From an uncultured Gammaproteobacteria bacterium (GTDB lineage Bacteria; Patescibacteriota; Patescibacteriia; Veblenbacterales; UBA10138): DNA of 64,000 nucleotides. Within the stretch, counting starts at the first letter, position 1. Every line of letters begins with the position of its first letter. Location of the stretch: assembly GCA_964453605.1 (NCBI GenBank), contig CAYVOI010000001.1:21182-85181 (forward strand), given 5' to 3'. Both the position numbers and the translations under genes were made by a program. Below, in pieces: positions 13,000 to 57,784 of the stretch. The notes below the pieces were generated by a model. That model saw nothing but the letters and a program-made list of their open reading frames with translations, was not told where the DNA came from and made no database searches.

Positions 13000-14349
13000 A
13001 TGACCAACGAAGAGCTGTGGAGCTCAACCTTGGGCGAGCTTGAGCTCCTAATAAGCAAAGCGAATTTTACGACCTGGTTCAAGAACACCAGCATTGTGTC
13101 GGTGAACGAGGGGCAGGTGGTGGTGGCAGTACCAAACGCCTTTACCAAGGCGTGGTTGGAAAAAAAGTACCACAGCTTCATCGTCAAGGCCCTACAGAAT
13201 ATAGCTGGCAGCGGCATCAAACACATTGACTACCGGGTGGAGTTGGGCCAGGCGGGCACACAAAAACAGGAGCTCGCTGCCCCGCCGGCCCCAGCCACAG
13301 CTGTGCGCGAGGTGGGGGCCAGCTTTGGGCTCAACCCGCGCTACACCCTTGACGCCTTTATTGTGGGCAAGAACAATGAGCTGGCCCGGGCAGCGGCCCT
13401 GGCGGTGGCCCAGAACCCCGGCGGAACCTACAATCCACTCTTCATCTACGGCGGGGTGGGCTTAGGTAAGACCCACCTCATGCAAGCTATTGGGCATGAC
13501 ATTGTGGGGCGCACCCCGGGCAAGCACGTGCTCTACGTGCCGTGTGAAAAGTTTACCACCGAGTTCATCCAGGCCATTGGTAGTGGAAAAATAGAGCGGT
13601 TCAAGTCCACCTATCGATCGGTTGATGTACTCCTGGTTGACGATATCCAGTTCCTGGCCGGCAAAGAAGGGACGCAGGAAGAGTTCTTCCACACCTTTAA
13701 CACCTTACACCAAGCCAACAAGCAAATTGTTTTAACTTCAGACAGGCCCCCCAAAGCTATTCAAACTCTGGAGAATAGGCTTATTTCTCGATTTGAGTGG
13801 GGCATGATAGCTGATATCGCAAGCCCAGATCTTGAAACCAGAACGGCGATTTTAGAAACCAAATGCCGCGAGCGTGGCTACCACCTGGAGCCTGATATCA
13901 TCAACTACCTCGCCACCAACATCCAGCACAACGTCCGCGAGCTCGAGGGGGCCCTCAATCGTATTGTCGCCTACCACCAGCTCAACAACCGTGCCCCCTC
14001 ACTGGAATCGGTTAAAGAGCTCTTACACGGGCTGCAGAGTGGTGGCGGGCACAATAAGAGCCTGACCAGTAAGAAGATACTAGCTACCATTGCCCAGTAC
14101 TACGACGTTGGTGCTGACGACCTGCTGGGGGTTAGCCGCAAGAAGCACCTGGTTGAGCCGCGGCAGGTGGCTATGTACCTGATGCGCGAAGAGCTTAAGG
14201 CCTCGTTCCCTACCATTGGCCAAGAAATGGGTGGCCGGGACCACACCACCGCTATGCACTCGTGCCTCAAGGTGGCCAAAGAGCTTGAGACAAATGAGAA
14301 GGTTCGACAAGATATTCACAACTTACGACAGCAGTTGAGCGCACTCTAA
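13000..14349 (+). CDS. dnaA: Chromosomal replication initiator DnaA
   Basis: Walker A GGVGLGKTHL, the AAA+ core, and the C-terminal DNA-binding helix-turn-helix. Confidence 0.95.
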   Translation: MTNEELWSSTLGELELLISKANFTTWFKNTSIVSVNEGQVVVAVPNAFTKAWLEKKYHSFIVKALQNIAGSGIKHIDYRVELGQAGTQKQELAAPPAPATAVREVGASFGLNPRYTLDAFIVGKNNELARAAALAVAQNPGGTYNPLFIYGGVGLGKTHLMQAIGHDIVGRTPGKHVLYVPCEKFTTEFIQAIGSGKIERFKSTYRSVDVLLVDDIQFLAGKEGTQEEFFHTFNTLHQANKQIVLTSDRPPKAIQTLENRLISRFEWGMIADIASPDLETRTAILETKCRERGYHLEPDIINYLATNIQHNVRELEGALNRIVAYHQLNNRAPSLESVKELLHGLQSGGGHNKSLTSKKILATIAQYYDVGADDLLGVSRKKHLVEPRQVAMYLMREELKASFPTIGQEMGGRDHTTAMHSCLKVAKELETNEKVRQDIHNLRQQLSAL

Positions 14350-14466: not shown

Positions 14467-15576
14467 ATGAAATTCTCATGTACCCAAGAAAATTTTAATA
14501 CAGGGTTAAGCGCTGTGGCTCACGTAGCCAGTCGAAATGCTAACCTACCAATTTTAAGTAATATCTTACTCCGTACCAGCAAAACCGGACTAGAGCTAGT
14601 GGCGACCAACCTGGAGGTGGCGGTAGTAACCGTGGTTCGGGGCAAGGTAGATGGAGAAGGTGCCATAACTGTGAACAGTCGACTCTTAAGCGACGCGGTA
14701 GCGCTACTTCCCAGAGAGCGCATTGACCTTGAGCTCACCGGCACCGACCTTGCCCTACGCTGCGGCAAGCACCGCACCACCATACGGGGCCTGGCGGCGG
14801 ATGACTTTCCTGTTATACCTGAGGTGGTGGGCGCGGGCGGCATAACCTGTAGCGCGGCTGACCTTGAGGCGGCGCTTGGTAGTGTGGTGTTTGCAGTTAA
14901 CCCCGACGAGGGTAGGCCCGAGATAGCCGGCGTCTACTTTGAGCACAGTAGCCGAGGGTTGGTGGTGGCGGGGACCGACAGCTACCGCTTAGCTGAGTAC
15001 GTTATCTCTTCGGTAAAAGGTAAAACCACCCCAGATAAATTTATTTTACCCCTCAGGGCCGCCCAAGAAGTACTTCGCGTGGTAGCGGGGGTGAACGAAG
15101 AAGAAGTTCAGGTGCTTACTAGTGATAGCCAGGCGCTGTGGCAGCTGGGAGAAACAAGGATTATCTCCCGCCTGGTAGCTGGTCAGTACCCTGACTACCA
15201 GCAAATTATCCCCAAGGATTTTGCCACCCGGGCAGTAGCCGCGCGGGACGAGCTCTTGAGGGCGGTGCGCTCAGCCGCCCTGTTTGCTCGCTCTGGCATT
15301 AACGATGTGCGCTTAAGCTTAACCCCCGAGCAAAAAACCATTACCGTATCGTCAGCCAATAGCCAGTTGGGAGAGAATACCATCGAGCTCGCCACGCTAA
15401 GTAGTGAGGGTGAAGCGGCTGAGGTGGTGTTTAATTACCGCTACCTACTGGAGGGGTTGCAGGCTACCCCACAGAGCGAAGTTGTGCTCGAGGTGGTGGG
15501 GCCTAAGAATCCGGGGGTGCTTAAACCACAGGGCGCCTCGAGCTACCTCTACATCATCATGCCGATTCGGCAGTAA
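14467..15576 (+). CDS. dnaN: DNA polymerase III beta sliding clamp
   Basis: Three-domain clamp architecture, directly downstream of dnaA. Confidence 0.9.
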   Translation: MKFSCTQENFNTGLSAVAHVASRNANLPILSNILLRTSKTGLELVATNLEVAVVTVVRGKVDGEGAITVNSRLLSDAVALLPRERIDLELTGTDLALRCGKHRTTIRGLAADDFPVIPEVVGAGGITCSAADLEAALGSVVFAVNPDEGRPEIAGVYFEHSSRGLVVAGTDSYRLAEYVISSVKGKTTPDKFILPLRAAQEVLRVVAGVNEEEVQVLTSDSQALWQLGETRIISRLVAGQYPDYQQIIPKDFATRAVAARDELLRAVRSAALFARSGINDVRLSLTPEQKTITVSSANSQLGENTIELATLSSEGEAAEVVFNYRYLLEGLQATPQSEVVLEVVGPKNPGVLKPQGASSYLYIIMPIRQ

Positions 15577-52643: not shown

Positions 52644-53183
52644 ATGCTCAAGCACCAGGACCAACGCATCGGCCTGTTTGTCGACGTACAGAACATGTAC
52701 TACTCGGCCCGTAACCTGTACGGTGCCCGAGCGAACTTTGGTAAGATTTTGGAGCAAGCTGTTGGTGACCGTAAGCTCATTCGCGCCGTGGCGTACGTTA
52801 TTAAAGCCGAGGCGCCAGAGGAGGCTAAGTTCTTTGAGGCGCTTGAGAGCCAGGGGTTTGAGCTCAAAATGAAAGACCTGCAGGTGTTCGCGGGTGGGGC
52901 GAAGAAGGGCGACTGGGACGTCGGGCTTGCTATCGACGCCATTTCCATGGCCCCTAAGCTCGACGTGGTGGTGCTTGCCACGGGGGATGGTGATTTTGTA
53001 CCGCTGGTGCAGTTCCTGCAGCTCCAGGGCGTCAGGGTAGAGGTGATAGCATTTGCCGAAACTGCTTCAGCAAAACTCAGGGAGCAGGCCGATGACTTCT
53101 TTGACCTGTCGACCGAGCGCGCTAAGTTCTTAATTCGTTCCAAAGTGCTCTCTGGTCGGCCGCCGCGTCGGTCAGAGCGCTAG
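52644..53183 (+). CDS. NYN-domain (LabA-like) protein
   Basis: IGLFVDVQNMYYSA...DVVVLATGDGDFVPLV, the NYN/PIN-like nuclease fold signature. Confidence 0.7.
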   Translation: MLKHQDQRIGLFVDVQNMYYSARNLYGARANFGKILEQAVGDRKLIRAVAYVIKAEAPEEAKFFEALESQGFELKMKDLQVFAGGAKKGDWDVGLAIDAISMAPKLDVVVLATGDGDFVPLVQFLQLQGVRVEVIAFAETASAKLREQADDFFDLSTERAKFLIRSKVLSGRPPRRSER

Positions 53184-53326: not shown

Positions 53327-55552
53327 ATGGTAGAGGTAAAACGGTTTGAGACAGAGGTTGCCGGCCGCAAGCTGATGGTCGAAGTCGGCAAGCTTGCCGG
53401 CCAGGCCCATGGCGCGTGTACTGTGCAGTACGGTGACACGGTTATTTTAGCTACAGCCGTGCAGGCTGAAGCCCCTCGGGAAGGCATAGACTACTTTCCC
53501 CTCATGGTGGACTACGAAGAGCGGCTCTACGCCGCTGGCAAAATAAAAGGCTCGCGCTTCATTAAGCGCGAGGGCAGGCCTTCGGATGAAGCCATTCTGA
53601 CCGCGCGTGTTATTGACCGCTCCATTAGGCCGCTATTCAAAGACACTGAACGCCGGGACGTGCAGGTGATAGTGACGGTGCTCTCTTGGGACCAAGAGAA
53701 CGACCCCGACGTACCAGCGCTCATTGGGGCCTCGTTGGCTTTGGGCATGTCGCCTATCCCCTGGGGTGGGCCACTGGCTGCTGCTCGCGTGGGGCGCATC
53801 AACGGAGAGTGGGTGTTAAATCCCAGTTACGAAGCACGTGGCAAGAGCGACCTCGAAATCTACGTCAGTGGTACTGCCGAGCAGGTAGTTATGATAGAGG
53901 CAGCTGCCAAGCAAATTCCCGAAGAGGTGATGGCCGAGGCCATTAGCTTCGGGCACAAGCACCTGGGGAAGCTGCTGCCGTTTATTGAGAAGGTTATTGC
54001 TGATTGTGGCCACCCGAAGCGCGCTGCGTTTGAAATTGACTCTGAGACTCAAGCAGCCGAGGGTGCCCTACGTACTAAGGTGGCCGCTTATCTCGACGGC
54101 AAATTTGAGCCTGTCTTCAGCGCCAAGGGTAAAGTTGCCCGCCGCGATGCCATTGCCAAGGTAAAGGCCGAGCTCGACGAGGCTTTGAAGGCCGACAACG
54201 ACGTTTCCAAAGAAGCCAGGGCTCAAGGCCTTACCTTTATGGATGAAATGCTCGACCTTGCCGCTCGTCGCTTAGTGCTCGACCAAGGTACCCGCATCGA
54301 TGGCCGGAAGGTTGATGAAGTCCGCTCACTCTCGTGCGAAGTCGGGGTGCTGCCGCGCACGCACGGGTCGGGCCTGTTCCAGCGCGGCGAAACGCAGGTG
54401 CTCTCTGTGGTCACCTTGGGTAGCCCAGGCGCCGAGCAGACACTCGACGGTATGGAAGAGGAGGGCAAGAAGCGCTTCATGCACCACTACAATTTCCCCG
54501 GCTTTTCCGTGGGTGAAGCTAAACCAGTGCGCTCGCCTGGGCGTCGTGAAATTGGCCACGGTGCACTGGCCGAGAAAGCGCTCGAGCCGGTGATTCCTCA
54601 GGACAAAGAAAAGTTCCCCTACACCATTCGCATTGTGTCTGAGGTGTTAGGCTCCAACGGTTCGTCATCACAAGCTTCAACCTGCGGCTCATCCCTGGCG
54701 CTCATGGACGCTGGTGTGCCCATTCTGGCGCCGGTGGCAGGGGTTGCTATGGGTATTGTTTGCGACCCTAAAGACAAGTCGCGCTATAGCATTATCACCG
54801 ATGTGCAAGACATTGAGGACCACGCCGACAGCATGGACTTTAAAGTGGCGGGCACGCGCACCGGCGTTACCGCTATTCAGCTCGACATAAAACTTCCAGG
54901 GATAAGCCAGGAGATAGTGCGGAAGACCTTGCAGCAGGCGCGTACTGCTCGCCTAAAGATTCTGGACGCCATGGACGCCGTGCTGCCCGCGCCTCGGCCT
55001 GAGCTCAGCCAGTACGCCCCACGGATTGTCTCCTTCTACATTCCCGTGGACCGGATTCGCGATGTCATTGGCCCTGGCGGCAAGATCATCAACGAGATCA
55101 TCGACGCTACCGGCGTTACTATCGACATTGAGGACGACGGCTTAGTCATGGTGACCTCGGTGTCAGCGGAAGCCAGCGCTAAGGCCGTGGACTGGATCAA
55201 GAACCTGACCCGCGAGGTGGTAGTTGGCGAAACGTTCCAAGGCAAGGTGACTCGGCTCATGAACTTTGGCGCCTTTGTGGAAATTCTCCCCAAGCAAGAG
55301 GGCTTGGTACACATTTCTGAGCTCGCTTGGCACCACGTGCCGAGTGTGCAAGACGCGGTTAAGGTAGGTGACACCCTGAACGTGAAGGTGATAGAGATTG
55401 ACGAGATGGGTCGCATCAACCTTTCCCACCGACAAACCTTGCCTCGGCCGGACGGCTACGTAGAGCGCCCACCTATGCCGCGAGGGAACGGTGGCGGGCA
55501 CCACGGTAACGGGGGCCCTAGGCACAATGGGCGCAACGGCTTTAGGCACTAG
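53327..55552 (+). CDS. pnp: Polyribonucleotide nucleotidyltransferase (PNPase) with a Gly-rich C-terminal tail
   Basis: Two RNase PH domains, a KH domain and an S1 domain; FMHHYNFPGFSVGE motif. Confidence 0.95.
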   Translation: MVEVKRFETEVAGRKLMVEVGKLAGQAHGACTVQYGDTVILATAVQAEAPREGIDYFPLMVDYEERLYAAGKIKGSRFIKREGRPSDEAILTARVIDRSIRPLFKDTERRDVQVIVTVLSWDQENDPDVPALIGASLALGMSPIPWGGPLAAARVGRINGEWVLNPSYEARGKSDLEIYVSGTAEQVVMIEAAAKQIPEEVMAEAISFGHKHLGKLLPFIEKVIADCGHPKRAAFEIDSETQAAEGALRTKVAAYLDGKFEPVFSAKGKVARRDAIAKVKAELDEALKADNDVSKEARAQGLTFMDEMLDLAARRLVLDQGTRIDGRKVDEVRSLSCEVGVLPRTHGSGLFQRGETQVLSVVTLGSPGAEQTLDGMEEEGKKRFMHHYNFPGFSVGEAKPVRSPGRREIGHGALAEKALEPVIPQDKEKFPYTIRIVSEVLGSNGSSSQASTCGSSLALMDAGVPILAPVAGVAMGIVCDPKDKSRYSIITDVQDIEDHADSMDFKVAGTRTGVTAIQLDIKLPGISQEIVRKTLQQARTARLKILDAMDAVLPAPRPELSQYAPRIVSFYIPVDRIRDVIGPGGKIINEIIDATGVTIDIEDDGLVMVTSVSAEASAKAVDWIKNLTREVVVGETFQGKVTRLMNFGAFVEILPKQEGLVHISELAWHHVPSVQDAVKVGDTLNVKVIEIDEMGRINLSHRQTLPRPDGYVERPPMPRGNGGGHHGNGGPRHNGRNGFRH

Positions 55553-55577
55553 AATACAGCACTCGTTTGGTATAAAA

Positions 55578-55607
55578 AAGGATGAGCAAGCTCATCCTTT
55601 TTTGTTT
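55578..55607. terminator. Bidirectional terminator between pnp and the convergent gene
   Basis: AAAAAAGGATGAGCAAGCTCATCCTTTTTTG. Confidence 0.6.
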
Positions 55608-55625
55608 GTGAAACTTCACCATATC

Positions 55626-56117
55626 TCAGCGTGCAGCAGCTACTGCATTCTCACACGTGTCCACCAGCGTACTGTGTATGACGATATCTGAGCATTCCTG
55701 TGCGAGCCGGTGTCGAATGTAACGCTCCCCGCTGAAACCAGGTTCAATACCTAGCACGAGTTGTGCCGCACTGCGACGGTGTCGCTCTTTCCATTCAGCG
55801 AGCTCGAACCTCGAGGTCTGGGCATAGGCCCTGTCGGGATGGTGTAGCTGCTCCTTGGCCAACCAAAACAGTATCACTCCTTGTGCTGCGGCTCGGTTCA
55901 GGTAGCGCGTTTCCCAGTCGACCTGTTTGGTATAGGTCCAGCCGGGTATATCTTTATTCAGGCTACGTGGGGAGGCAATGTACAAGGAACTGTCTAAGCT
56001 GCGTAGTATAGTAATGGCCTCTTCCTGCCACGGCGCTGCTCCCTGGATTGGTCCAGCTAGAAATAGTAATGGACTGCCCACCTGAGTTTCTTCAATTGCT
56101 CGTATGACGTTGTTCAT
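55626..56117 (-). CDS. Nucleoside 2-deoxyribosyltransferase-like Rossmann-fold protein
   Basis: LFLAGPIQGA near the N-terminus, as in the Nuc_deoxyrib_tr / YtoQ-type families. Confidence 0.4.
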   Translation of the reverse strand: MNNVIRAIEETQVGSPLLFLAGPIQGAAPWQEEAITILRSLDSSLYIASPRSLNKDIPGWTYTKQVDWETRYLNRAAAQGVILFWLAKEQLHHPDRAYAQTSRFELAEWKERHRRSAAQLVLGIEPGFSGERYIRHRLAQECSDIVIHSTLVDTCENAVAAAR

Positions 56118-56307
56118 TTTTTCCTCTCGTCTTTAGGTTTGGTTTGCGTGTAGCGACCTTAGTATTAAAGGCTTAGGAAGTCAAACTTTGCCTGTTGTTA
56201 TTTTGATTAGTATTTGTGGATAAGTTGTTAATCTTGTGGATAATGAGCACTTAAAGTGCTCAGGGGTACAACAGATTTTTTAGCTTAATGTAGCAAAATA
56301 AGTACTA

Positions 56308-56336
56308 TTGACCAATTCAAAAAAGTATGCTATATT
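56308..56336 (+). promoter_or_regulatory. Sigma70-like promoter for the candidate ncRNA
   Basis: TTGACC, 17 nt, TATATT. Confidence 0.5.
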
Positions 56337-56342
56337 GTACTT

Positions 56343-56722
56343 GTTGATAGTTCGTTGTAAGCTTTAGGCAGAGGGTAGAGGAGGTTTGGACACCCAACTA
56401 CAGCGTCTAAGCCCTCTCTACTGTCCGGAGTCTGCTCGCAAGCTTTCGGGCGGGCCACAAAAATAACTTTTGAAATAAATACAAAACAGGCCGTGTACCC
56501 TTTCGGGGGTGCTCAGGACCATGAGGATGGTAGAGATAACTTGGCGTAACTTTACACCGTTAGCAGTTACGCGCCTAAGGCGCTTGTTGATACATCTTGT
56601 GATGTGCTACCTGCATCGTCAGGTAGTCGCTCAAGTAGTACAAGCGTCGCACGGGGCGCCGTTTACGCCAATAATTCAATTTTCCTAATTGGAAAGGGCG
56701 CCTAAACGGCGCCTTTTCTTTT
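56343..56722 (+). ncRNA. Candidate structured ncRNA (~380 nt) of unknown class
   Basis: A 670-bp stretch with no ORF of at least 60 aa. It is bounded by a consensus promoter and a strong GGCGCC-TAAAC-GGCGCC + T-run terminator at 56695-56725. No tmRNA, RNase P or SRP signature motifs were recognised. Confidence 0.4.
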
Positions 56723-56791
56723 TACCAACATTTGATTTGGCCAATGTGATAACCCCTTCGTTATCCGGTAGGCTTACGGTATGCTGACCAT

Positions 56792-57355
56792 ATGTATAGC
56801 ATATATATTGTACGTCATGGGCAGGACGAGGATAACGCGCAGGGTATTTTGAATGGCCACCGCGATCAAAGCCTCACAGCTTTGGGTAGGTCGCAGGCAA
56901 TACAGCTCGCTAAGAAGTTACAAGGTAAAGCTATTGGTGCAGTCTACTGCGGTCCTCTGCGGCGGCACCGAGAAACTGCCAACATTATTCTTGAAGTGCT
57001 GGGTACAATACCAGTTACTATAAACGAAAGCCTTATTGAGAGAGACTTTGGCGTCTTAACTGGTAAGCCCGTAGATGATATTCCTAAGTACGCCAAGGAG
57101 ATTCTGGCAGGTGACCGCGTAAACTATTTTCTTAGTGTTGAGGGTTCGGAGAGTTTCCCGGCAGTGTATGAGCGAGCCAGCACCTTTTTGCGAAACCTTA
57201 GGTCTCAGGCTCAAGATAAGAACGTGCTGGTAGTGACTTCGAGTGATACTGGTAAGATGATTCGCGCAGCCTTCATGGGTTGGCCGTGGCAAGAAGGTTT
57301 GATGACGTCATACTTTGATAATGCTGATAGTATTGAACTAGTGGTGCCTGACTAA
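56792..57355 (+). CDS. Histidine-phosphatase-family protein (phosphoglycerate-mutase-like)
   Basis: N-terminal IVRHGQ (RHG catalytic motif). Confidence 0.8.
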   Translation: MYSIYIVRHGQDEDNAQGILNGHRDQSLTALGRSQAIQLAKKLQGKAIGAVYCGPLRRHRETANIILEVLGTIPVTINESLIERDFGVLTGKPVDDIPKYAKEILAGDRVNYFLSVEGSESFPAVYERASTFLRNLRSQAQDKNVLVVTSSDTGKMIRAAFMGWPWQEGLMTSYFDNADSIELVVPD

Positions 57356-57412
57356 CCTAGCTTGCCGTAAGCCTTGATTGGTCTTGGACCTCGTGCTATA
57401 CTGCCCTCCGCT

Positions 57413-57784
57413 ATGGAAAAAGCATTCATTGCTGAAATGAAGCAGGCGCTTGAGCAAGAGCGCGAGCGGCTGGAGGCTGAGCTCAAGGGCTTTGCGCACC
57501 GCGACAGCCACACCGGCGCTACCTACAACGCTGACTTCCCGAGCTACGGCGACAAGGAAGAGGACAACGCTACCGAAGTTGCCACCTACACCGACAACCT
57601 CTCCCTCAGCCGTACCCTAGAGGCTAAGCTTGAGGATGTGATAAGCGCGTTGGAGCGTATGGCTAAGCGCACCTACGGTACGTGTAAGTACTGCGGTAAA
57701 GAAATTGACGAGCGCCGGCTCCGCGCTCGGCCTGAGTCAGCCAGTTGCGTAAAGTGCAAACAAGAACGCCTCCAGCGCATATAG
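57413..57784 (+). CDS. dksA: DksA/TraR-family C4 zinc-finger regulator
   Basis: Coiled-coil region followed by CKYCGKEIDERRLRARPESASCVKCK. ATG at 57413 (MEKAFIAEM). Confidence 0.75.
   Translation: MEKAFIAEMKQALEQERERLEAELKGFAHRDSHTGATYNADFPSYGDKEEDNATEVATYTDNLSLSRTLEAKLEDVISALERMAKRTYGTCKYCGKEIDERRLRARPESASCVKCKQERLQRI

Follow-up and report, generated by a model that had tools for sequence, protein, structure and literature searches.

What is made from a piece of DNA that has the boundaries of a transcript and no gene between them? The question is raised by positions 56308-56725 of the window analyzed here, a 64,000-nucleotide (64 kb) stretch of contig CAYVOI010000001.1 (assembly GCA_964453605.1, positions 21,182 to 85,181, forward strand), in which a first-pass annotation had seen a candidate novel structured noncoding RNA (ncRNA). 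We propose that 56343-56725 on the forward strand is very likely a separately transcribed and probably abundant structured ncRNA gene, one of an uncatalogued family of 346-417 nt RNAs in several lineages of Patescibacteria (the candidate phyla radiation, CPR), which would act in trans as a scaffold and be linked to DnaA. That the product is a structured ncRNA is, if anything, a little surer than this reading as a whole; it is carried by conservation exceeding that of the flanking genes, about 40 homologues, base-pair covariation and the lack of a conserved open reading frame (ORF).

A predicted transcription unit without an ORF

The predicted sigma-70 promoter at 56308-56336 (+), already picked out in the first-pass annotation, consists of a -35 hexamer TTGACC, a 17-nt spacer and a -10 hexamer TATATT, matches the consensus at 10 of 12 positions, has a TG extended -10 in that the spacer ends in TGc, and ranks first among the four promoter-like sites within 55500-57500. 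The same layout, TTGAC(A/C)-17-TGnTATAnT, is found in the homologous loci L002, L007, L008, L010, L014 and L020 introduced below, and L032 differs only in having CGc instead of TGn ahead of the -10. The RNA ends in a very stable hairpin followed by UUUUCUUUUU. The core of this strong terminator, likewise recognized earlier, is GGGCGCC-UAAAC-GGCGCC with a U-run behind it (local hairpin -21 kcal/mol, z = -6.4); the extended hairpin at 56653-56715 reaches -31.6 kcal/mol (z = -5.6). The whole element at 56653-56725 (+) comprises an outer stem GGGGCGCCGUUUA:UAAACGGCGCCUU, an inner stem CGCC:GGCG, an AU-rich apical region and the tail UUCUUUUU; the GC-rich hairpin GGGCGCCGTTTACGCC of the first-pass annotation turns out to be the 5' arm of the extended stem. 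Similar three-part terminators are found in other members of the family. A simple terminator scanner did not list the one in the window, and partial Rfam matches to small RNA terminators fall precisely on it.

Between these signals lies a predicted transcript of about 383 nt (56343-56725, +), with the transcription start site (TSS) placed 7 nt past the -10 (±2 nt) and the 3' end in the U-run. It holds no ORF of at least 60 aa, as had been stated; the longest in the region is a GTG-started frame of 59 aa at 56509-56688, which has no Pfam match and is not conserved. For the forward strand of 56343-56725 the folding energy is -139.2 kcal/mol (z = -4.78), a value equalled by none of 100 shuffles, and the reverse strand of the same unit folds less well (z = -2.59).

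Homologues in Patescibacteria

The closest relative, L002, is a syntenic contig whose His_Phos protein is 62% identical to that of the window and which has a 585-bp ORF-free gap between pnp and the His_Phos gene. This gap aligns to window positions 56213-56723 with 85% identity and contains two invariant runs, one of 46 nt and one of 70 nt, the latter at the extended terminator. The RNA region is 85-90% identical between the two contigs, compared with 80% for the pnp region and 71% for the downstream genes at the DNA level, and the differences that fall in stems include compensatory changes. The nearest relative after L002 is L202, in which pnp is 69% identical and synteny is kept; it aligns to the window by BLAST with E = 9e-6.

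A pnp-based scan of GTDB species-representative genomes did not contain the lineage of the window (best identity 62%), and most of its 80 loci were from Bacilli, with few from CPR. These few have an analogous unit 0.7-2 kb downstream of pnp, in which an ORF-free stretch of 357-417 nt is preceded by a TGTGGATAA box and a TTGAC(A/C)-17-TGnTATAnT promoter and closes with a GC-rich hairpin and a U-run. They are L007, L008, L010, L014 and L032, to which L020 was added later; together with L002 these loci were obtained from pnp synteny or a structural scan, independently of the RNA sequence. A context-free pattern combining the promoter with a CUCUAC-type and a GGUAGAG-type motif at set spacings was then applied to metagenome contigs and yielded 120 stretches, of which about 45 loci passed a filter for the long-range helix (HX) and the A-rich tract described below, and 30 non-redundant loci were retained. 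Retention was judged, beyond the pattern, on an A-tract of at least 13 A in 20 nt, an HX of 9-12 bp, a terminator, BLAST similarity to known members, DnaA boxes and synteny. The pattern-derived members thus display features for which the pattern did not select: the A-tract, a terminator, DnaA boxes, NYN-pnp upstream, and the DksA zinc-finger gene and yifB downstream. The same pattern gave 16 matches on viral contigs, none with the family features, which sets the false-positive baseline; a phage or viral origin was rejected on this result and on the absence of any blastn match in phages.

The family thus assembled comprises about 40 homologues of 346-417 nt from Patescibacteria genomes and metagenomes, and its locus lies, with few exceptions, between pnp and a DksA/TraR zinc-finger gene. 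The earlier suggestion of a lineage-specific ncRNA therefore stands as regards the ncRNA, and falls as regards a narrow lineage restriction, since the RNA occurs in several Patescibacteria lineages; this breadth is inferred from the labels of metagenome-assembled genomes (MAGs). Two of the loci (L007 and L008) are labelled "uncultured Gammaproteobacteria" and L020 "uncultured Bdellovibrionales", labels that are probably wrong, since the RNA and a NYN-pnp-RNA synteny of the Patescibacteria type are both present on these MAG contigs. The Saccharibacteria, Uhrbacteria and Nealsonbacteria loci inspected (L009, L022, L026, L030, L044, L050, L062 and L071) yielded no convincing homologue near pnp. 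In a Saccharibacteria MAG, an A-rich stretch with a terminator-like hairpin behind it, situated 3.4 kb past pnp (L030:9595-9685), gave a weak nhmmer match (E = 0.019), which may be due to chance or point to a strongly diverged or reduced relative. The pattern search also returned a recurrent, near-identical false positive with spacings of 68/192/267 (L093, L096, L097, L098, L107, L112, L113, L132, L134, L140, L145, L146 and others), which has a 7-bp helix and no A-tract, is not a family member, and comes mostly from human-gut metagenomes, with one copy on the 878-kb contig SCPN01000143.1.

Shared architecture and covariation

The members found by synteny share one order of elements: a hairpin H1; the strand (Y)UCUYUACU; one or more H2 hairpins; an A-rich single strand; a hairpin H3 with a GG:CC closure and an A behind it; the strand GGURRRG, the pairing partner of the CUCUAC motif; additional hairpins; and the terminator. 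The first-pass annotation had suggested covariation analysis with related intergenic regions. In a sequence-only MAFFT alignment of 11 L010-type members RNAalifold gives 86 pairs, with standard pairs in 94.7% of the cells, and double changes occur in 38 of the 86 pairs, against 16.8±2.5 in column shuffles (none of 500 reached 38) and 3-14 in slid controls with partners moved by 1-3 columns. Covariation on a sequence-only alignment is thus combined with the absence of a conserved ORF, the two marks by which a structured ncRNA is recognized. Compensatory base-pair changes run throughout the 350-415 nt, which argues for selection on RNA structure. MAFFT alignment of all divergent members was of too low a quality for RNAalifold, which gave only 4 pairs with 7 sequences and HX alone with 14 cores, and the subfamily alignment was therefore used together with one guided by a covariance model (CM). 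This model, R1, built on the L010-subfamily core, finds members of other subfamilies at E = 1e-12 to 3e-4 and matches L202 at E = 6e-6. With 28 members of several subfamilies aligned to R1 (alignment A8), double changes are seen in 41 of 48 pairs against 22.2±2.6, counts that are inflated because the alignment was fitted to the model.

HX is a long-range helix of 10-12 bp (CUCUACU:GGUAGAG) that is near-invariant in most lineages, in part because the pattern forced it. Members obtained independently of the pattern have complementary alternatives in its place, CUUUAC:GUAAGG in L007 and CUCUAC:GUGGAG in L008, and it is fully covaried in L014 (UUUUCCG:CGGAAAG) and L020 (CUUCCCCA:UGGGGAG). The inner extension of HX covaries in alignment A9, where UA is swapped for CG. 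A second covarying element joins two loops: the loop of H2 is complementary to that of H4, the first hairpin past HX, at a fixed position and with at least 8 different sequence pairs, namely CUGACU:AGUCAG (CCGACU:AGUCGG in L094), CCUCAC:GUGAGG, GUUGG:CCAAC, AUUGG:CCAAU, GCCGAC:GUCGGC, GCUCAC:GUGAGC, CCCUAAC:GUUAGGG and CCAAC:GUUGG. We interpret this complementarity as a covarying kissing-loop contact, which could be either intramolecular or intermolecular. The third common element, the tract (A4-5Y)n, was not imposed by the search pattern and is present in all members, with one or two tracts of 14-26 nt per RNA, 7 G in 658 nt overall, and a position that is always directly 5' of H3.

The family architecture is recovered in the window as well. 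An alifold of the window, L002 and L202 reproduces it with 26 covarying pairs among just three sequences, and 56413-56538 folded in isolation gives the family three-way junction (z = -4.2). All elements of the window RNA lie on the forward strand. A leader (56343-56382) precedes hairpin H1 (56383-56413, GGUUUGGAC...GUCUAAGCC), which has compensatory changes in the three-sequence alifold and whose equivalent, helix 1 of A8, has double changes in 14 of 15 pairs. The 5' strand of HX, UCUCUACUGUCC (56415-56426), forms 12 bp with its 3' strand GGAUGGUAGAGA (56525-56536) and closes the three-way junction. Within it, both the minimum free energy (MFE) fold and the alifold place the H2 hairpin (56430-56455), whose loop CAAGCUUU contains the palindrome AAGCUU; next comes the A-rich single-stranded junction strand CACAAAAAUAACUUUUGAAAUAAAUACAAAACA (56456-56488), part of the 46-nt run invariant with L002. 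The family-wide (A4-5Y)n tract takes up the distal 14 nt of this strand. An exact 25-mer of the invariant A-rich run had 0 matches among metagenome contigs. The H3 hairpin (56489-56520), closed by GG:CC and followed by the invariant A ("ACCA"; invariant C177, C178 and A179), is supported by the alifold and by helices 4 and 5 of A8. Beyond HX, the alifold gives H4 (56544-56572, GCGUAACU...AGUUACGC), whose homologous hairpin is the kissing-loop partner in other lineages, and H5 (56579-56648), a long irregular hairpin whose equivalent, helix 7 of the L010 subfamily, has double changes in 15 of 22 pairs.

Two further features of the 5' region were noted. The window H2 loop AAGCUU is complementary to an AAGCUU in the leader, and a comparison of the sequences shows a compensated change in L002, with loop CGGCUU and leader AAGCUG. 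A long-range pairing of the 5' leader AAGCUUUAGGC with GCCUAAGGCGCUU in the window MFE fold was rejected, the leader being altered in L002 without compensation.

Several points weigh against reading 56343-56725 as a stable member of this family. The TSS, the 3' end and the abundance are all inferred from sequence alone. R1 finds neither the window nor L002 at E up to 1-10, and a sequence-only nhmmer profile of 28 members, although its best match in the whole 64 kb is 56455-56536 and in register, links the window to the family at E = 0.025 only; membership of the window consequently rests on the L202 bridge together with synteny, motifs and architecture. In the pattern-derived members the promoter and the HX core, both of which the pattern forced, do not count as independent evidence, and the A8 counts carry the inflation mentioned above. 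The H2-H4 kissing contact is not evident in the window or L002. Finally, a second GUAGAG copy at the base of H1 (window 56374-56381 versus 56529-56535; likewise in L007, L008 and L108) can pair with CUCUAC, so that the 5' and 3' copies form mutually exclusive helices with the same strand, and this competition in several lineages may be accidental or could mean a switch, with regulation in place of a static scaffold.

Known RNA classes and coding potential

A length of 350-415 nt would suit RNase P RNA or tmRNA, and the strong promoter is typical of stable RNAs. It could thus be asked whether the family is a highly divergent RNase P RNA, tmRNA, 6S RNA or SRP RNA, the more so as CPR RNase P RNAs are reported to have diverged to scores below the Rfam noise cut-offs (PMC8172020). 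The DksA-like neighbor, as an RNA polymerase (RNAP)-binding factor, would fit a 6S-like RNA. The Rfam scan proposed with the original candidate gave no known family: at the gathering threshold 13 member loci yielded tRNAs only, four divergent members scanned against Rfam 15 at E up to 10 had no relevant match, and everything returned for the window, the 13 loci and the four E-value scans consists of tRNAs, spurious miRNA-like hairpins and terminator look-alikes. ARAGORN detected no tmRNA or tRNA, either in the window region or in any of 37 members.

The individual classes fare no better in the same four divergent members at E up to 10. RNase P models (RF00010/RF00011) have no match there; the P4 motifs CR-I (GGAAAGUCC, GAGGAAAGUCC) and CR-V (ACAGAA...GGCUUA) are absent from the consensus of a 36-member alignment, and the consensus structures contain no P1-type helix closing 5' to 3' ends, the 3' end being the terminator hairpin. 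For tmRNA (RF00023 and permuted forms) there is no Rfam match and no T-arm or CCA, and candidate tag frames through the A-rich region are interrupted by indels between the window and L002. The exclusion of RNase P RNA and tmRNA in the first-pass annotation, made because no P4 motif, tag reading frame or tRNA-like 3' end could be recognized, thus holds. No match to 6S RNA (RF00013) was obtained, and a three-way junction with a 3' domain takes the place of the ~180-nt rod with central bubble. T-box (RF00230) and SRP RNA were equally negative, the latter also lacking its hallmarks, and OLE, ROOL, GOLLD, raiA and HEARO had no match in the Rfam 15 gathering or E-value scans. With no P4/CR-I or CR-V, ends that are unpaired, no T-arm or CCA and no 6S rod, a divergent form of one of the known housekeeping RNAs is extremely unlikely.

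The A-rich strand invites another explanation, in which it is a translation enhancer ahead of a small protein whose candidate ORF starts from AUG-GUA-GAG (56528). A 59-aa frame is present at 56509-56688, AUG or GUG stands right before GUAGAG in several members, and L007 and L008, read from their sequences, would have a similar N-terminal peptide with a 3-nt indel. However, 1-nt and 2-nt indels between the window and L002 fall right past the start of the only sizeable ORF and lead to unrelated peptides; ORFs in the 11-member L010 subfamily differ in frame, start and end, none being positionally conserved; substitutions within helices are compensatory; and the 59-aa frame, as said, has no Pfam match. 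The small-ORF hypothesis was rejected on the indels and the frame inconsistency, and an mRNA function is hardly credible. A conserved small ORF had been named at the outset as the finding that would speak against an ncRNA; none is conserved in the L010 subfamily or across the indels of the window and L002.

DnaA boxes upstream of the RNA

Upstream of the promoter are two perfect DnaA boxes, at 56215-56223 (TTATCCACA on the reverse strand, TGTGGATAA on the forward strand) and at 56235-56243. Both are on the reverse strand, 20 bp apart, and they lie 128 and 108 bp upstream of the predicted TSS; they are the sole perfect TTATNCACA sites in the 64 kb window and both are kept in L002. Of the 33 loci with enough upstream sequence, about 30 have a perfect TGTGGATAA at a distance of 100-170 bp ahead of the predicted TSS, accompanied by a weaker TGTTnATAA 11 bp further downstream and often by a third box ~20 bp upstream. 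The conserved upstream element is exactly the 9-mer, and DnaA boxes number 45 near the TSS versus 6 elsewhere in 300 kb. The boxes are missing from the L014 and L020 types, which do have the RNA, and the L007-type clade has an extra TTATNCACA at +18.

The boxes do not mark the origin. In the window dnaA (13000-14349) and dnaN (14467-15576) are located near the cumulative GC-skew minimum at ~8-12 kb, so that oriC is probably just upstream of dnaA; the dnaA/oriC region, ~43 kb from the RNA locus, contains only DnaA boxes with one mismatch (12887, 12909 and 14438). An oriC at the RNA locus was rejected, with dnaA-dnaN and the skew switch at 8-15 kb and no skew switch at 56 kb. The presence of perfect boxes here and not at dnaA or the skew minimum suggests DnaA-dependent promoter control or a DnaA-titrating site.

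Could the locus then be primarily a DnaA-binding DNA element, of the datA/DARS kind or a secondary origin, with transcription and RNA structure incidental? The only two perfect boxes in 64 kb are here while dnaA-dnaN and the GC-skew minimum are at 8-15 kb, and the boxes keep a fixed distance in ~30 of 33 loci with weaker phased boxes alongside. Against this, compensatory changes over the whole 350-415 nt reflect selection on RNA structure, the boxes are outside the transcribed part save for the +18 box of one clade, the L014 and L020 types retain the RNA without them, and 56 kb shows no GC-skew switch. Such an exclusively DNA-level role is very unlikely, and DnaA titration by the upstream boxes could in any case coexist with an RNA gene.

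Two additional motifs are found around the boxes and the start site. A conserved UUGA(C/U)A occurs near the transcript 5' end, at +10 to +27 in L007, L008, L170, L092, L108 and L127 (for example L008:6904-6922) and at 56344-56350 in the window; it resembles a second -35 hexamer and in the L007-type clade directly precedes the TTATNCACA at +18, an arrangement that may represent a tandem promoter or else a site of DnaA roadblock. The DnaA box is separated from the RNA promoter by a small hairpin with a T-run (for example L008:6795-6835, L010:7725-7765, window 56245-56285). This hairpin seems to terminate the upstream gene, so that the DnaA box would fall between the stop codon and the terminator of that gene; the upstream gene of the window is divergent, and there a GAGCACUUAAAGUGCUC hairpin takes that place.

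The RNA as a possible leader of the downstream gene

The first-pass annotation had also considered a long leader of the histidine-phosphatase gene. More generally, the RNA might be a cis-regulatory leader, riboswitch or attenuator that senses a signal and controls terminator read-through into the downstream gene, His_Phos here and the DksA-like gene with lspA elsewhere. The RNA is directly upstream of the DksA/TraR zinc-finger gene in about 27 of 36 loci, in the window and L002 neither a good promoter nor a good Shine-Dalgarno sequence is seen in the interval from the terminator to the His_Phos ATG, and CUCUAC has exclusive pairings with 5' or 3' GUAGAG in several lineages; three-way junctions with kissing loops are, moreover, typical of large riboswitches. 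Nevertheless, the next gene varies, being His_Phos in the window and L002 only, rnhB in L007, yraN in L014 and, in L202 and most other members, the DksA-like gene, which in most members has a separate, near-consensus TTGACA-17-TATAAT promoter past the RNA terminator. The single downstream gene class and uninterrupted transcription expected of a riboswitch are thus not what is found, and a leader of His_Phos is contradicted. The terminator is very stable (-31.6 kcal/mol) and invariant, and no conserved anti-terminator was found in the MFE or alifold structures by a search that was not exhaustive; the alternative helices are at least 150 nt upstream of the terminator. The 5' GUAGAG pairing is broken by a U-U mismatch in L002 and does not exist in the L010 and L032 types, and the promoter is unusually strong for a leader. 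Taken together, a leader function is unlikely.

A possible role and related RNAs

The preferred reading is hence that of a stand-alone RNA gene, for which a trans-acting role can be envisaged. The RNA would be a stable scaffold with the displayed A-rich strand as its functional site, and this strand would most plausibly bind or sequester a protein with affinity for single-stranded A-rich RNA, for example an S1/KH-domain protein (PNPase or ribosomal protein S1) or an Hfq-like protein, making the RNA a sponge or the core of a ribonucleoprotein (RNP). This specific sponge or scaffold mechanism is tentative and, as it stands, rather doubtful. DnaA may modulate transcription of the RNA and so tie its level to replication and growth state, and the competing 5' GUAGAG of some lineages would leave room for a conformational switch. 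Alternatively, RNA-RNA assembly through kissing loops may take place as in ROOL and GOLLD, for which the abstract of PMC12286853 describes homo-oligomers mediated by such loops. The palindromic AAGCUU loop of the window could support dimerization.

Among known systems, OLE, ROOL, GOLLD and raiA motif RNA are alike in their length of several hundred nt, conserved multi-helix architecture, abundant covariation, long-range helices, loop-loop contacts, stand-alone genes and phylum restriction. The window family, which has no Rfam match to any of them, is smaller (350-415 nt), belongs to another host phylum and has another context, with pnp followed by the dksA-like gene. To our knowledge, none of these four classes has a long, A-rich junction strand free of G, or DnaA boxes upstream. 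The new family resembles the category of large ncRNAs of unknown function in kind and belongs to none of its families. The sponges CrcZ/CrcY and CsrB/RsmZ are similar in their ~400 nt, their strong expression (predicted for the window RNA) and their terminator end. The A-rich single strand may be compared with the "CA" motifs that CrcZ/CrcY offer to Hfq/Crc (CsrB/RsmZ act on CsrA), as AAN/ARN-like triplets could fill an RNA-binding surface. Those sponges, however, carry 5-6 repeated motifs, whereas the window family has one or two A-tracts embedded in an elaborate conserved tertiary scaffold and shows no sequence or CM similarity to them. 6S RNA and Ms1 share an abundant, stable-RNA-type promoter, and the DksA/TraR neighbor is a factor of the RNAP secondary-channel type; the window family differs in lacking the bubble rod and any Rfam match, in its unpaired ends and in being twice the size of 6S. 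For the zinc-finger gene beside the RNA, B. subtilis ylyA may serve as an analogy. RNase P RNA and tmRNA are comparable in size class, phylum-wide conservation and housekeeping-style expression signals, but their defining motifs and domains are absent from the window family, and neither CM nor ARAGORN matches were obtained.

Full-text literature searches, limited in reach, returned no paper describing a CPR/Patescibacteria ncRNA of this kind and none on Patescibacteria RNA biology beyond rRNA, tRNA, RNase P and tmRNA. On balance we favor the view that with the window RNA a first example has been found of a large structured RNA class, so far undescribed and Patescibacteria-wide, whose members of 350-415 nt would be DnaA-box-linked, highly expressed and built as a three-way-junction and kissing-loop scaffold presenting a G-free A-rich strand. 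Patescibacteria have tiny, streamlined genomes and are nearly all uncultivated; a ~400-nt RNA under strong structural selection, with a near-consensus promoter and the best DnaA boxes of its region, likely has a central role there. In minimal genomes that retain little non-coding sequence this role might be that of a housekeeping RNP, an RNA-only assembly or a replication-tied global regulator. If the proposal is true, a new class is added to the short list of large bacterial ncRNAs, a covariance model becomes available for annotating a recurrent "empty" intergenic region of CPR MAGs, and a concrete, testable link is drawn between DnaA and an RNA gene. The three-way junction with its covarying loop-loop contact is also a good target for structural work.

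Gene neighborhood

In the window the RNA is preceded by a Band-7 gene, NYN (52644-53183), the PNPase gene (53327-55552) and, on the reverse strand, a Nuc_deoxyribosyltransferase-like gene (55626-56117), an assignment below the Pfam cut-off (26.6 bits versus 30). It is followed by His_Phos (56792-57355), the DksA/TraR zinc-finger gene (57413-57784), LspA and YifB/ComM. Homologues of the His_Phos protein bear Patescibacteria or Parcubacteria names, in line with a genome of that type. The 674-bp gap that contains the RNA thus separates the Nuc_deoxyribosyltransferase-like gene, which adjoins the RNA only in the window lineage, from His_Phos (+), which is shared with L002. Both flanking genes look like insertions into a pnp - RNA - dksA-like order, as L202 and most members have neither.

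No convincing -35/-10 pair or Shine-Dalgarno sequence was seen at 56726-56791, between the terminator and the His_Phos ATG, suggesting that the His_Phos mRNA may be leaderless or arise by terminator read-through. TATGCT is situated 5 nt ahead of this ATG, and in L002 the gap from terminator to His_Phos is just ~28 nt. Elsewhere in the window, eleven tRNA genes are distributed over 7612-49883, all on the reverse strand, with several (Gly, Phe, Pro, Lys and Arg) grouped at 43-45 kb.

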